Origin: Candidatus Saccharimonadales bacterium
GTDB lineage: Bacteria; Patescibacteriota; Saccharimonadia; Saccharimonadales; JACDBH01
Direction: 5' to 3'
Assembly (NCBI GenBank): GCA_041752595.1
Contig: JBGSWE010000004.1
Span: 87,057-151,056 of the forward strand
DNA: 64,000 nucleotides
Shown: positions 29,662-33,090 of the stretch, piece after piece
Layout: every line of letters begins with the position of its first letter
How positions within the stretch are numbered: the stretch's first letter is position 1
The notes under the pieces: model-generated
The model's database searches: none
Seen by the model: only the letters and a program-made list of their open reading frames with translations
Told to the model about the DNA's origin: nothing
Position numbers and translations under genes: made by a program

Positions 29662-29922
29662 ATGAGTGAGATCCTTGAAGATGCACAAAGTTCTATAGTT
29701 GATACCGCATATCTGGATAGGATCGAAGCTGTTGACGATGCTGTATTCACTGCAATCGGTATTGCAGGAATAGAATCAGGAAGAATTAGATTCAAAAGAA
29801 TTTTTGGAGATGTTCGCGCACAAAGAGTTTTTAACAAAGTACTTGCAAAAACACTGGTTGATTTAATGGCTGATATACCCAGCGATGTTCAATACTATAG
29901 AGTTGAGGAGCAGGATGATTAA
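29662..29922 (+). CDS. hypothetical acidic protein (86 aa) inserted between atpA and atpG
   Basis: Its ATG directly abuts the atpA stop (TAAATG). Backbone-like composition. No family recognised. Confidence 0.55.
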   Translation: MSEILEDAQSSIVDTAYLDRIEAVDDAVFTAIGIAGIESGRIRFKRIFGDVRAQRVFNKVLAKTLVDLMADIPSDVQYYRVEEQDD

Positions 29923-29975
29923 GCTACTTTTTGAAATAAACTATCACGTTTCAAATATCGTGGCCGGAGTAAATC

Positions 29976-30845
29976 ATGGCTAGCACGATTGCCTTAAAGC
30001 GCCGAATTGGTAGTGTCAAAAATACTAAGCAAATTACAAAAGCTATGGAGTTGGTTGCTGCTAGTAAAATGCGTAAAGCTACAGAGTCTGCGCATCGTGG
30101 TCGTGCTTACCGCCTAGCGGCGCACAGTATGTTATCGCGACTCACAACAGTAACAGAAATCAGCGAACATCCTCTTTATAAAGTCCGTCCAATCAAGAAC
30201 CGCATGTATGTAGCAATCACTTCAGACCGTGGTCTTGCAGGTGCTTACAACGCCAACATTATCAAAATGCTTACTAGACTTATCAAAGAAGACCGTGAAA
30301 AGTCCGTAAAAAGTCAGATTATTATAGTTGGTAAACGAGGTGCGCAGTTTCTAAAACGAATTGAAAATATTGACATTATTGCGGCCTATTCAGACTTTGG
30401 CGATCACCCGACCGCCAATGACATTCGACCGATCTTAGACACAGTAGTCGAAAAGTATCGAAGTGCCGAAACTGATGAAGTCCGTCTACTTTACACCGAA
30501 CATAAAAGTAATATTGTTCAGCTTGCCCAAAGCCTTGCAATTTTGCCAGCTACGTTTGACGCAGAAGCCACTGAGGAGCAAACTTTGACAGACGTAACTT
30601 TTGAGCCGTCAGTTACCGAAGTACTAGAAAACGTAACCGAGCGTTTGTTAGAGGTCCAGATATGGCAAGCCCTGCTAGAATCTATTGCCAGCGAACACAG
30701 CATGAGAATGTTAAGCATGAAAAACGCCACCGATAACGCAACTGATATCATTGCCGATTTGACCCTAGAGTTTAACACCGCTCGTCAATCTAAAATTACC
30801 CAAGAACTAGCCGAAATTACTGGTGGCGCGGAGGCAATGAAATGA
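29976..30845 (+). CDS. atpG: F0F1 ATP synthase subunit gamma
   Basis: IKRRIGSVKNTKQITKAMELVAASKMRKA...ITQELAEITGGAEA. Confidence 0.9.
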   Translation: MASTIALKRRIGSVKNTKQITKAMELVAASKMRKATESAHRGRAYRLAAHSMLSRLTTVTEISEHPLYKVRPIKNRMYVAITSDRGLAGAYNANIIKMLTRLIKEDREKSVKSQIIIVGKRGAQFLKRIENIDIIAAYSDFGDHPTANDIRPILDTVVEKYRSAETDEVRLLYTEHKSNIVQLAQSLAILPATFDAEATEEQTLTDVTFEPSVTEVLENVTERLLEVQIWQALLESIASEHSMRMLSMKNATDNATDIIADLTLEFNTARQSKITQELAEITGGAEAMK

Positions 30846-31435
30846 GTACAGTAAAAGTTTATGATTTTGAGATGGAAACTCAGCAAGAAGATCCCAGAAG
30901 AATTGCCTTTGTTGCAGAAACTTACGAACAATATATACGTGATTATCCTGTTCAAAGATATATTGCTAACTTAGCATCCAATCAGCGCTTGCGAGACGGA
31001 ATGATGACAGATGTAAATCATAAATTCAGAAACTTTGAATGGTGGCAAAACCCAGGTAGTGAGGTTGAGATAAGTGATATTGAGAGAGTGCGTAAATATA
31101 TCGCCACTATTATATCCTGCGCCATGTATTCTCCAGCTCATAAATACTGGGGTGATTTCCCTGTTATAGATAGAAAGATCCCGGTCGTAAGTGGCGGTAA
31201 TGTTTGTACAAAAATGATTGTAGATGATTACAATACTATGTGGGCTCAAAAAGGTGTAGATCAATACGTTATTCCGGTACTAGAAGTAAATGAAACCGAA
31301 ATTACCACTGAAATACCAACAAGTTTTAATGGCTTTCCACCTCCTAGCTTATCACCAGAAGTAGATTTAATAGATATAAAATCAGTGCTGGATTATGACG
31401 ACCAGCAGTTGAGGGAACTTTTGGGTATTGCATAA
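30842..31435 (+). CDS. hypothetical protein (197 aa) inserted between atpG and atpD
   Basis: Its start overlaps the atpG stop (ATGA). Backbone composition (22/60 GC at 31021-31080). No family recognised. Confidence 0.6.
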   Translation: MSTVKVYDFEMETQQEDPRRIAFVAETYEQYIRDYPVQRYIANLASNQRLRDGMMTDVNHKFRNFEWWQNPGSEVEISDIERVRKYIATIISCAMYSPAHKYWGDFPVIDRKIPVVSGGNVCTKMIVDDYNTMWAQKGVDQYVIPVLEVNETEITTEIPTSFNGFPPPSLSPEVDLIDIKSVLDYDDQQLRELLGIA

Positions 31436-31489
31436 TGAACAGAACGACCAGAACGAAAGATACTTTGAACAAGAATGAAAGGAAATAAC

Positions 31490-32887
31490 ATGGCAACAGC
31501 AGAAAAATTGAAAACAAGCACAGGAACGATAAGTCAGGTTGTGGGCGTGGTGATAGATGCAGAATTTAGCGAGGGTTCCCTGCCGCCAATTTATAACGCT
31601 CTTGAAGTCACACTTAAAGGAAAAAGTCTGTTATTTGAAGTAGCACAACATTTAAGTGAAACTAGTGTTCGTGCGGTTGCGCTTGGTACGACTGACGGAT
31701 TAGAAAGAGGAGTAGATATTATTGATACTGGCGCGCCAATTAGCGTGCCAATTGGTGAGGAAACTTTGGGGCGTATGTTTGATGTCAAAGGCACACCTAT
31801 TGATGGACTAGAAGATAAGTTTAAAACACGCTCATCTATACATAGGTCGCCTCCTGCGTTTATAGAACAATCTGGTTCGGTAGAAATACTAGAAACCGGA
31901 ATTAAAGTAATTGATCTCATTAGTCCAATCACCAAAGGTGGAAAAGTTGGCTTGTTTGGTGGTGCTGGTGTAGGTAAAACTGTTTTGATCCAGGAACTCA
32001 TAAATAACATTGCTAAATTCCATAGTGGATATTCTGTCTTTGCGGGTGTTGGTGAGCGAACACGCGAAGGAAATGATCTTTACCATGAAATGAAAGATTC
32101 AGGAGTAATTGATAAAACTGCACTTGTTTTTGGTCAGATGAATGAGCCACCAGGAGCACGTTTGCGAGTGGCATTATCGGGACTAACTATCGCTGAGGGT
32201 TTTCGTGATCAAGGTTCAGACACTTTGCTTTTTATTGACAATATTTTTAGGTTCACACAGGCTGGTGCAGAAGTCTCGGCACTTCTTGGAAGATTACCTT
32301 CAGCTGTGGGTTATCAGCCAAACTTAGCTACCGAAATGGGTGCCCTGCAAGAGCGCATTACGTCTACCCGAAAAGGTTCTATTACATCAGTTCAAGCAGT
32401 ATATGTGCCGGCTGACGACTTTACTGACCCTGCACCTGCTACTGTGTTTTCACACCTGGACTCTACAATTGCACTCAACCGAGCACTAACAGAACTAGGG
32501 CTTTACCCAGCTGTTGATCCGCTGGATTCTAGCAGTACTATACTAGACCCAGAAATAGTTGGCGAAGAACACTATACTGTAGCCCGCGAAGTCCAACGTA
32601 TTTTGCAGCGCTATAAAGACCTGCAAGATATCATTGCAATCTTAGGCATGGAAGAATTAAGTGACGACGACAAGTTGACAGTGTCTAGAGCGCGTAAAAT
32701 CCAACGTTTCTTAACTCAACCATTCTTCGTTGGCGAAGTATTTACTGGCAAACCCGGTAAATACGTTTCACTCAGTGATACAATTGCTGGTTTCCGTGAA
32801 ATACTCGACGGCAAGCATGATGACAAACCAGAATCGGCCTTCTACATGAAGGGTGGAATAGATGAAGTTAAAGAGGATAGCAAGTAA
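31490..32887 (+). CDS. atpD: F0F1 ATP synthase subunit beta
   Basis: Walker A GGAGVGKT, plus [11 protein letters not shown] and DELSDDDK-type [26 protein letters not shown] chose the ATG at 31490 (AAAGGAAA RBS); the track start is 31475. Confidence 0.95.
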
Positions 32888-33090
32888 TGTCGGGCTTTTC
32901 TAAAGATAAATCCATAGAACATGCATTAGCAACAGAAATGTTTGTGACTAATGCTGAGCGTGCAAGAAGACTAGCCGAACTAACAGGCTTACAACAAGAT
33001 TTACTTGATGAAGAAGCCCAAACTGATTTTAATAATAGTTCCATGGACGACGCCGACGATTTGAGTCATGGAGATGACCCAGTTTTATGA
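32887..33090 (+). CDS. hypothetical acidic protein (67 aa) inserted between atpD and atpC
   Basis: Its start overlaps the atpD stop (TAATG) and its stop overlaps the atpC start (ATGA). No family recognised. Confidence 0.5.
   Translation: MSGFSKDKSIEHALATEMFVTNAERARRLAELTGLQQDLLDEEAQTDFNNSSMDDADDLSHGDDPVL

Follow-up and report, generated by a model that had tools for sequence, protein, structure and literature searches.

The order atpA-atpG-atpD-atpC is among the most conserved operon structures in bacteria, and the canonical F1Fo operon (E. coli unc type) comprises nine genes, atpIBEFHAGDC. Extra small cistrons are known from N-type ATPase operons, where atpQ and atpR encode conserved membrane proteins at fixed positions of a rearranged operon. 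Small regulators of F1 include the epsilon C-terminal domain, alpha-proteobacterial zeta, mitochondrial IF1, cyanobacterial AtpTheta and the assembly factors Atp11 and Atp12, all conserved families that are mostly encoded away from the junctions between F1 genes. Tybulewicz, Falk and Walker reportedly found in 1984 that the atp operon of Rhodopseudomonas blastica carries an additional 'gene X' at one such junction, gamma/beta. This is a single-lineage report, and gene X is not known as hypervariable or as occurring at several junctions.

Here we describe an atp operon in a 64,000-nucleotide stretch of DNA (the window) from a Candidatus Saccharimonadales bacterium. It follows the canonical gene order, with all nine standard genes intact, and adds three coupled cistrons, ORF1-3, at the alpha/gamma, gamma/beta and beta/epsilon junctions. 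Like atpQ and atpR, these are small extra genes within a rotary-ATPase operon, but the ORFs here are soluble, acidic, non-conserved, variable in number and without a profile match. The small F1 regulators are likewise small proteins with potential action on the F1 head, which co-expression of the junction ORFs with F1 would fit; in contrast to them, junction occupants are replaced on a species-to-genus timescale, and ORF1-3 have no match to those families at E<=1. ORF2 shares its position with gene X, itself an unexplained ORF at the gamma/beta junction.

Three coupled ORFs between the F1 genes

The operon and its additional features, in window coordinates, are as follows.

25560..25901, + strand: atpI-like gene that opens the operon, PF09527 (ATPase_gene1)
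25894-26730, + strand: atpB, Fo/stator gene
26765-26998, + strand: atpE, Fo/stator gene
27159-27689, + strand: atpF, Fo/stator gene
27692-28102, + strand: atpH, Fo/stator gene
28099..29661, + strand: atpA (F1 alpha), Pfam PF00006 and PF00306; gene-caller start 28102
29662..29922, + strand: ORF1, 86 aa, pI 4.42, strict orphan; start abuts the atpA stop (TAAATG)
29923..29975, + strand: 53-nt spacer with a GGAG Shine-Dalgarno for atpG, read from sequence
29976..30845, + strand: atpG (F1 gamma), Pfam PF00231
30842..31435, + strand: ORF2, 197 aa, pI 4.58, strict orphan; ATGA overlap with the atpG stop
31475..32887, + strand: atpD (F1 beta), Pfam match; gene-caller start 31490
32887..33090, + strand: ORF3, 67 aa, pI 4.11; TAATG overlap with the atpD stop, ATGA overlap with the atpC start
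33087..33521, + strand: atpC (F1 epsilon), PF02823 and PF00401, both domains present

The first-pass annotation had described three extra ORFs among atpA, atpG, atpD and atpC with stop-start coupling, and its description is exact. The atpA stop (29659-29661) is followed directly by the ORF1 ATG at 29662, ORF2 shares ATGA at 30842-30845 with the atpG stop, and ORF3 overlaps its neighbors on both sides, at TAATG (32885-32889) and ATGA (33087-33090); the ORFs are coupled to the F1 cistrons. The sequence also shows that ORF2 has its Shine-Dalgarno, a GGAGG, inside the 3' part of atpG. The true start of atpD is likely 31490, which is preceded by the Shine-Dalgarno AAAGGAAA; depending on the choice of start, ORF2 ends 39-54 nt before atpD. 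A 17-nt complementarity between ORF3 and atpC was considered and set aside, its conserved core being just 8-9 bp, without covariation. Elsewhere in the window operon, the Fo/stator junctions are tight except for the 160-nt atpE-atpF spacer, and there are no internal terminators or promoters above chance. We looked for inserts in the cyoABCD operon of the same window and found none.

The three ORFs exceed what chance would produce. Their codon-usage scores (0.44, 0.32 and 0.49 for ORF1, ORF2 and ORF3) compare with 0.29 +/- 0.07 for real window genes and 0.20 for the best of 56 spurious ORFs, and GC1>GC2>GC3 periodicity is clear. By our own estimate, which takes 40% GC and hence stops at ~6.3% of random codons, a 197-codon open frame would arise by chance with a probability of ~3e-6. 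All three were also called by an independent gene caller in a Logan assembly of the same strain with identical DNA. These observations support ORF1-3 as genuine coding sequences; we propose that they are cistrons of the atp mRNA, each of which would be translated through stop-start coupling and from a Shine-Dalgarno that lies within the last part of the F1 gene before it. Their GC content (0.37-0.40, against 0.40 for the window) is native to the genome, as first noted, and a recount of positions 31021-31080 again gave 22/60; the F1 genes have a GC of 0.43-0.46. Two of the ORFs had been called strongly acidic, and in fact all three are acidic.

ORF1-3 lie outside known families

The initial impression that ORF1-3 belong to no recognized family was borne out by profile searches (Pfam, NCBIfam, PHROGs), and there was likewise no match in PADLOC, PDB sequence, Rfam, phage or plasmid records that would place them. 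Profiles of core F1Fo subunits (PF00006, PF00231, PF00213, PF02823 and others) matched the neighboring genes strongly and ORF1-3 only at noise level, the best score being that of NF004402 (delta; E=0.19, 11.8 bits against a cut-off of 115). None of AtpI/AtpZ, zeta, IF1, Atp11, Atp12 or AtpQ/R matched at E<=1 in Pfam and NCBIfam. The PADLOC profiles did not mark ORF1-3 as anti-phage defense genes, the sole match being a Cas6 model over 33 residues of ORF1 (14 bits, E=0.006). A PDB sequence search returned nothing significant, Rfam gave no match at E<=1 over 29500-33200, and tblastn with ORF1-3 found no phage or plasmid relatives. No homologue of ORF1 or ORF2 was present among ~15 billion proteins; a word-indexed search of 5.8 billion clusters returned only the self-hit for each of the three ORFs, as did an exhaustive HMMER search of 1.84 billion representatives for ORF2. 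By sequence similarity, then, ORF1-3 are orphan, or taxonomically restricted, genes. Single-sequence AlphaFold2 predicted four helices for ORF1 at low confidence (pLDDT 60) and reached pLDDT 40 for ORF2, values too low for a fold search.

Close relatives tell the three ORFs apart. ORF1 and ORF2 are missing from six relatives at 82-87% AtpG identity (L084, L085, L086, L102, L001 and L002), all with intact F1 genes and with junctions that are either vacant or occupied by unrelated ORFs. The first two gaps gave no DNA match in blastn at word size 7, and frameshifted or scrambled ancestral ORFs were rejected. Since they lack a counterpart in L084, in evolutionary terms ORF1 and ORF2 appear younger than that split; the earlier judgment that the ORFs are not recent insertions holds for composition only. 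ORF3 has a single orthologue, L084:7599-7808, from the closest relative, whose AtpG is 87% identical. The two proteins are 50% identical and share the C-terminal tail MDDxDDLxHGDDPVL; NG86 omega is 0.24, and the 15-codon C-terminal block holds 5 synonymous and 2 non-synonymous differences. Conservation among close relatives was thus seen for ORF3, in L084 only, and not for ORF1 or ORF2, whose absence from close relatives is an outcome that the first-pass annotation had named as refuting, and because these two lack homologues in relatives at 82-87% AtpG identity the idea of conserved lineage-specific subunits is not supported. A role of ORF1-3 as ATPase regulators, also suggested initially, is possible.

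F1 junctions are expanded across Saccharibacteria

We compared 163 related atp loci, sampled at species level, and counted a junction as expanded when it measured at least 150 nt. The three F1 junctions were expanded in 46%, 61% and 52% of Saccharibacteria loci, against 3-15% of relatives for four Fo/stator control junctions. The atpH/atpA junction borders atpA too, yet is unexpanded. The atpI->atpB junction, the sole usable extra control (the flanks hold too few conserved non-atp gene pairs), was expanded in 0/23 relatives. Gap lengths were continuous from 0 to ~1750 nt, with 0-4 extra cistrons per junction. At least one extra cistron was present in ~78% of the sampled Saccharibacteria loci, while ~22%, close relatives of the window genome included, were empty throughout. 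As far as the searchable literature shows, this pattern is previously undescribed.

The gaps are filled with coding sequence. Across 174 expanded gaps, the longest same-strand ORF covered a median of 99% of the gap, compared with 37% for the longest antisense ORF (p=1e-29). Gap ORFs overlapped the previous stop or began within 10 nt of it in 90% of cases, and the last gap ORF overlapped the next atp start or ended within 10 nt of it in 83%; the ends of the F1 genes contain Shine-Dalgarno motifs. Codon positions of gap ORFs had GC1/2/3 of 0.57/0.40/0.37, whereas antisense ORFs were flat at 0.46. The gap ORFs are acidic, with a median pI of 4.6 (n=235) and, among those of 50-100 aa, a median of 4.5, compared with 8.0 in flanking ORFs (p=7.5e-32), and only 9/235 had a TM-like segment. 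ORF1-3 would be local examples of this Saccharibacteria-wide class of small, soluble, acidic products of the alpha/gamma, gamma/beta and beta/epsilon junctions, which we call junction proteins.

Families of junction ORFs and mobility

The 235 gap ORFs formed 162 clusters, 118 of them singletons, and so represent ~160 unrelated families. Comparison of ORF1-3 with all 162 clusters by hhalign gave probabilities of at most 15%; an apparent similarity of ORF2 to an atpD/atpC-gap ORF of L003 (phmmer E=6e-4) was rejected at an hhalign probability of 5.5%. Families keep to their junctions, only ~2 of the 44 multi-member families crossing from one to another. The members of an 11-member family always lie directly upstream of atpD, in genomes whose AtpG is 45-84% identical to that of the window, which looks like long-term functional retention.

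Pfam domains were missing in 148/150 cluster representatives. One identifiable occupant is PF05635, the 23S rRNA intervening-sequence protein, a bAvd-like four-helix bundle. It occurs in the same junctions in six related loci, at atpA/atpG (L009, L129, L136) and at atpD/atpC (L042, L056, L063), with scores above Pfam gathering in L009, L042, L056, L063 and L129 only, but ORF1-3 have no Pfam match to it. Together with the clean presence and absence of cistrons, these occupants would fit selfish mobile cassettes akin to homing elements, morons or integron cassettes, with the conserved ends of F1 genes as their targets. Several observations speak against this reading, which we consider very improbable. 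None of the 150 representatives carries an endonuclease, integrase or transposase domain, target-site duplications are lacking (boundary identity 0.28-0.30, equal to the null), and searches for repeats or cassette boundaries in the window returned chance-level matches only. Nor were there phage or plasmid relatives, families seldom cross junctions, and ~1.3 Mb of flanking DNA held no copies of gap-ORF families outside the junctions. The junction ORFs would therefore not be classed as selfish elements on features such as a nuclease, integrase or transposase, terminal repeats, attC or target-site duplications. Apparent extra-junction copies proved to be junction positions on short contigs. Junction duplication was rejected as well, boundary identity being at the null level.

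Junction occupants turn over rapidly under weak purifying selection

Where a junction was occupied in both genomes of a pair, the share of pairs with homologous ORFs was 100% at >=99.5% AtpG identity, 91% at 95-99.5%, 60% at 90-95%, 26% at 85-90% and 2% at 80-85%, so that homology is gone below ~85%. On a 96-taxon tree, occupancy must have changed at least 25, 17 and 18 times at the three F1 junctions, for a total of at least 60 gains or losses. Given the species-level sampling, some apparent replacements may reflect divergence too fast to detect. With conserved flanks and differing content in close relatives, the F1 junctions are a gene-turnover hotspot. They resemble core-gene-flanked hotspots and phage 'morons' in their conserved flanks, variable content and clean presence and absence; they differ in that each unit, one tiny cistron inside an essential operon, has no promoter, terminator or mobility gene of its own and is expressed by translational coupling. 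As to mobility or horizontal origin, mobility domains, target-site duplications and phage or plasmid matches were absent, and one genome pair (L045/L115) showed a gap-ORF dS of 0.03-0.06 against 0.22-0.28 for the flanking atp genes. This anomaly hints at recombination and is the one observation behind that route.

Sister genomes at 94-98% AtpG identity differ by clean whole-cistron indels, and occupants found in just one of two sisters are already fully codon-periodic, with an acidic pI and a balanced composition. These sisters bear on de novo gene birth, in which spacer DNA near a strong Shine-Dalgarno would be translated and mature gradually into orphans. The strict orphan status of ORF1 and ORF2, the 118/162 singleton clusters, the continuous gap lengths and the Shine-Dalgarno motifs in F1 gene ends all suit such an origin. 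However, young occupants already have mature coding character, indels comprise whole cistrons rather than gradual extensions, and the gap DNA resembles no non-coding or frameshifted sequence in relatives; we consider this origin very improbable.

Pooled pN/pS of the gap ORFs was 0.36 (p=2.9e-4; only ~55 substitutions underlie the value), against 0.028 for F1 genes of the same genome pairs. Purifying selection, proposed in the first-pass annotation as a check, is therefore detectable for the junction ORFs as a class. This bears on whether they act only in cis, as relays by which ribosomes would cross the insert and terminate at the next F1 start, preserving coupled synthesis of gamma, beta and epsilon, with the peptide a harmless by-product. 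Near-exact gap fill with coupling at both ends, no sequence conservation between species and no protein domains found are as relays would have it, and the acidic, soluble bias is consistent with a filter for harmlessness. Yet pN/pS is well under 1, codon periodicity is strong, and the amino-acid blocks of ORF3 are conserved despite synonymous variation. In the window, 53 nt separate ORF1, and 39-54 nt separate ORF2, from the next gene, which has its own Shine-Dalgarno, so a relay is unneeded at two of the three junctions. Relays also leave the retention of the DNA unexplained, as the empty junctions of relatives work well, and we judge a purely cis role improbable.

A second possibility is that junction proteins are lineage-specific partners of F1 acting in trans, for instance as chaperones of assembly, as inhibitors or as regulators. 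Their binding site would be the soluble head or the gamma/epsilon stalk, with acidic surfaces or tails (for example, DDLxHGDDPVL at the ORF3 C-terminus) docking on basic F1 surfaces, and they would evolve fast through low-specificity, short-motif binding. Several findings agree: occupants are confined to the three F1 junctions and rare at Fo/stator ones, unrelated families share an acidic, soluble character, purifying selection is seen, and the blocks shared by ORF3 and its orthologue contain synonymous changes. Each family keeps to one junction, the 11-member family upstream of atpD included, and coupling implies F1-like synthesis levels. Against this, ~22% of Saccharibacteria loci do without any occupant, occupants are non-homologous between genomes at 82-87% AtpG identity, known ATPase accessory families are not matched, and an intervening-sequence protein occupies these junctions in six loci. 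F1 subunit lengths are also the same with or without occupants, so the junction ORFs do not replace lost subunit domains, and compensation for truncated F1 subunits was rejected. A trans-acting role is unlikely in our estimation, though well short of negligible.

Discussion

We lean, at slightly better than even confidence, towards junction ORFs being dispensable cistrons that are quickly replaced, are carried along by F1 expression and are not conserved ATP synthase subunits. Gain, loss and replacement would be clean and involve whole cistrons, from the stop upstream to the start downstream, leaving occupants unrelated once AtpG differs by more than ~15%. Selection would preserve an intact ORF that hands ribosomes on to the next F1 gene and, weakly, an acidic, soluble product. 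As lineage-specific passengers or modulators, the products would be dispensable, would be made at levels like those of F1 and would not be core subunits. For the exchange route we favor homologous recombination, with the flanking atpA and atpD, both highly conserved, as anchors; the unexpanded atpH/atpA junction, which borders atpA too, speaks against it. Restriction to F1 junctions and common acidity could equally reflect a real shared function directed at F1, in which case 'passenger' would be wrong.

A bolder view, to which we give a modest chance, is that the three F1 junctions of Saccharibacteria form a dedicated 'slot' system, with a large and quickly exchanged pool of small, unrelated acidic proteins at F1 stoichiometry that would act as species-specific modulators of ATP synthase assembly, direction or inhibition. 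Its diversification could possibly stem from conflict with hosts or phages, or from lifestyle adaptation, for instance to hydrolyzing or synthesizing ATP in epibionts that have or lack a respiratory chain. If true, this would reveal new hypervariable accessory factors for one of biology's most conserved machines.

If the products act on F1, ATP synthase would have a new and diverse class of modulators in a major phylum that is uncultured and host-dependent and whose energy metabolism is little understood. Should they instead be passengers, the F1 junctions would offer a clean natural system for the entry and persistence of orphan genes in essential, translationally coupled operons. They would then show how selection filters products co-expressed at high levels, as in the acidic, soluble bias, and how small cassettes are shuffled by recombination between conserved core genes.

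The atp operon of the window and its additional cistrons

A complete atp operon lies on the + strand of the window, with strong Pfam matches for all standard genes. Its core gene set conforms to the canonical bacterial operon, and three small genes (ORF1, ORF2 and ORF3) are additional cistrons placed among the F1 genes:

25560-25901, + strand: atpI-like gene (Pfam)
25894-28102, + strand: atpB, atpE, atpF and atpH (Pfam)
28099-29661, + strand: atpA (Pfam)
29662-29922, + strand: ORF1, 86 aa, beginning on the first base after the atpA stop
29976-30845, + strand: atpG (Pfam)
30842-31435, + strand: ORF2, 197 aa, with an ATGA overlap with the atpG stop
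31475 or 31490 to 32887, + strand: atpD (Pfam)
32887-33090, + strand: ORF3, 67 aa, with a TAATG overlap with the atpD stop and an ATGA overlap with the atpC start
33087-33521, + strand: atpC (Pfam)

The positions and junction motifs of ORF1-3 claimed in the first-pass annotation were exact when re-read from the sequence. No internal terminators or promoters were found above chance level, which makes a single transcription unit plausible. A GGAGG Shine-Dalgarno motif sits in the 3' codons of atpG for GGAEA. ORF1 stops 53 nt before atpG and ORF2 39-54 nt before atpD, and both downstream genes carry their own Shine-Dalgarno motif.

Under a log-odds model of codon usage, for which the long genes of the window served as training set, ORF1, ORF2 and ORF3 scored 0.44, 0.32 and 0.49, compared with 0.29 +/- 0.07 for real genes and 0.20 for the highest of 56 spurious ORFs. 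All three have a clear GC1>GC2>GC3 periodicity and were predicted by an independent gene caller in the Logan assembly of the same strain, which has identical DNA. Judged on these coding signals, ORF1-3 are real cistrons and not chance ORFs. Acidity, first noted as strong in two of them, extends to all three (pI 4.42, 4.58 and 4.11, respectively).

Several other features of the region were recorded. ORF1 shares the atpA reading frame across a lone TAA (28099-29922, from coordinates), so read-through would lengthen the alpha subunit by 87 residues at its C-terminus; the shared frame is probably incidental, since the frames differ in other genomes. A conserved block of ORF3, GCATTAGCAACAGAAAT (32923-32939), is 82% complementary to a conserved atpC stretch (33204-33220), with an 8-9 bp core also present in the nearest relative, locus L084; this is probably chance, as covariation offers nothing to test. 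The atpH gene (27692-28102) encodes only 136 aa and matches the OSCP model (172 positions) over positions 76-170 alone, and because the delta subunit of relatives has a median length of 131 aa, a truncated N-terminal region seems general in Saccharibacteria. At the DNA level the atpE-atpF spacer (26999-27158, 160 nt) matches L084:2262-2421 with about 88% identity, although the genes on either side are saturated at synonymous sites; the spacer contains a basic 48-aa ORF (27009-27155) whose codon score is weak (0.09), and has neither a stable RNA fold (z=+0.8) nor an Rfam match. Elsewhere in the window (47359-52592), a UbiA-type prenyltransferase gene, possibly for heme O synthase, precedes a cyoABCD-like operon for a quinol oxidase, whose four genes are tightly joined and overlap; this saccharibacterium therefore appears able to respire oxygen.

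Searches for relatives of ORF1-3

No match to ORF1-3 was found in Pfam, NCBIfam, PHROGs, PADLOC, PDB sequences or Rfam, in agreement with the initial statement that none belongs to a recognised family. Phage records held no match to ORF1 or ORF2, and plasmid records none to ORF2. A search of 5.8 billion protein clusters gave each of the three no match but itself, and the same held for ORF2 when 1.84 billion representatives were scanned exhaustively with HMMER. Structure prediction by AlphaFold2, run without an alignment, was not informative: pLDDT was 40 for ORF2, and ORF1 was modelled as four helices at pLDDT 60. By sequence and profile comparison, ORF1-3 fall outside the known ATP synthase subunits and regulators, mobile elements, defence proteins and RNA families, and they fit the definition of orphan genes.

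With AtpG as anchor we gathered relatives, 80 loci from genomes and 80 from metagenomes. Almost all belong to Saccharibacteria, and the closest (L084) has 87% AtpG identity. Protein, profile and DNA comparison found no homologue of ORF1 or ORF2 among these loci. ORF3 has a single orthologue, in L084; the two proteins are 50% identical and have three conserved blocks in common, one of which contains the C-terminal tail MDDxDDLxHGDDPVL. Omega for this pair is about 0.24, and the C-terminal block is constrained as protein, since it has five synonymous codon differences and only two non-synonymous ones. In the comparison across relatives proposed in the first-pass annotation, the junctions themselves are often expanded, and the distribution of ORF1-3 contradicts the earlier idea of conserved ATP synthase subunits.

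Expanded F1 junctions in Saccharibacteria

Gaps of at least 150 nt occur in Saccharibacteria loci at 46% of atpA|atpG, 61% of atpG|atpD and 52% of atpD|atpC junctions, compared with 3-15% at four Fo/stator control junctions and 0/23 at atpI|atpB. The cytochrome oxidase operon of the window has no inserts. Since complete chromosomes (L006, L023, L050) show the same pattern, the expanded junctions are not a binning artefact. The longest same-strand ORF covers a median of 99% of an expanded F1 gap, versus 37% for antisense ORFs (n=174; Wilcoxon p=1e-29). Most gap ORFs (90%) start overlapping or within 10 nt of the preceding stop, and 83% of last gap ORFs stop overlapping or within 10 nt of the next atp start. 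Codon periodicity of a coding kind is seen in the 235 gap ORFs, with GC1/2/3 of 0.57/0.40/0.37, versus a flat 0.46 in antisense ORFs of the same gaps.

Some junctions are larger still: atpG|atpD can reach 1.2-1.75 kb with three or four successive coupled ORFs (L036:6868-8087; L039:6862-8601). In another locus the operon is split by a 3.8-kb insertion between atpD and atpC (L037:8306-12094) that carries two ORFs on the opposite strand, 376 and 319 aa long.

Clustering with jackhmmer placed the 235 gap ORFs in 162 clusters, 118 of them singletons, and 148 of 150 cluster representatives lack a Pfam domain. One of the two exceptions is an artefact of a split atpA. The other is PF05635, the 23S rRNA intervening-sequence protein (a bAvd-like four-helix bundle), found in six loci (atpA|atpG of L009, L129 and L136; atpD|atpC of L042, L056 and L063). 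Just two or three families, this one included, are not confined to a single junction. Other families keep to one junction; the largest (11 members) always lies directly upstream of atpD. Despite unrelated sequences, gap ORFs have common physical properties: their median pI is 4.6, with 73% below pI 5, and only 9/235 have a TM-like segment. Among ORFs of 50-100 aa, the median pI is 4.5 in gaps versus 8.0 in flanking regions (Mann-Whitney p=7.5e-32).

Specificity for F1 junctions, shared acidity and the faithfulness of families to position all favor occupants acting in trans as modulators of F1, which we consider possible, if somewhat unlikely. The F1 subunits keep the same lengths whether or not the junctions are occupied, so the occupants do not stand in for lost subunit domains.

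Turnover and selection at F1 junctions

Even within the clade of the window (with L084, L085, L086, L001 and L002), occupants differ in number, length and family. Homology between occupants falls steeply with AtpG divergence, and an AtpA+G+D tree of 96 taxa requires, by Fitch parsimony, a minimum of 25, 17 and 18 changes of occupancy at the three junctions.

Occupants of F1 junctions in pairs of loci, by AtpG identity (homologous occupants at co-occupied junctions; junctions occupied in one genome only)
>=99.5%: 100%; 0%
95-99.5%: 91%; 18%
90-95%: 60%; 15%
85-90%: 26%; 18%
80-85%: 2%; 36%

The loci L071 and L089 have 98% identical AtpG, yet their occupants are only 61% (atpG|atpD) and 44% (atpD|atpC) identical. 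Where closely related genomes could be paired without saturation at synonymous sites, the pooled pN/pS of gap ORFs is 0.36, below neutrality (binomial p=2.9e-4); for F1 genes of the same pairs it is 0.028. This value counts against purely cis-acting relay ORFs, as does the termination of ORF1 and ORF2 short of downstream genes with their own Shine-Dalgarno motifs, and we regard that explanation as improbable.

Between sister genomes (AtpG identity 94-98%), the differences are clean indels of whole cistrons, running exactly from the upstream stop to the downstream start. No repeats flank these indels, and junction sequences show no general duplication; we give very little weight to occupants being selfish mobile cassettes. 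Hardly more probable is that the junctions are a cradle of de novo genes, since occupants that one sister has and the other lacks are already mature in appearance, being periodic and acidic, which disfavors raw de novo birth. In one pair (L045/L115), synonymous differences in the atpG|atpD and atpD|atpC gap ORFs are 0.03-0.06, versus 0.22-0.28 in flanking atp genes, which hints at cassettes younger than their flanks and so at recombination; this pair is the only direct hint of that route.

A gene-turnover hotspot inside an essential operon

A 'gene X' between gamma and beta was reportedly described long ago in Rhodopseudomonas blastica. We found no description of variable F1-junction cistrons in the searched literature, where the nearest paper only remarks that a CPR pilus operon adjoins the atp genes. 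The F1 junctions qualify as a gene-turnover hotspot with core genes on either side, but are unusual among such hotspots in lying inside an essential operon and in having as their units single tiny cistrons, expressed through translational coupling.

The explanation we favor, with moderate confidence, is that ORF1-3 are the local members of a dispensable, fast-turnover class of junction proteins that relay ribosomes to the F1 genes. Such proteins would exploit Shine-Dalgarno motifs within the conserved 3' ends of F1 genes and would hand ribosomes on to the following F1 gene. Occupants would probably be gained, lost and replaced by recombination anchored in the conserved flanks, while selection would keep the junction ORFs open and coupled and their products soluble and acidic, constraining sequence weakly.
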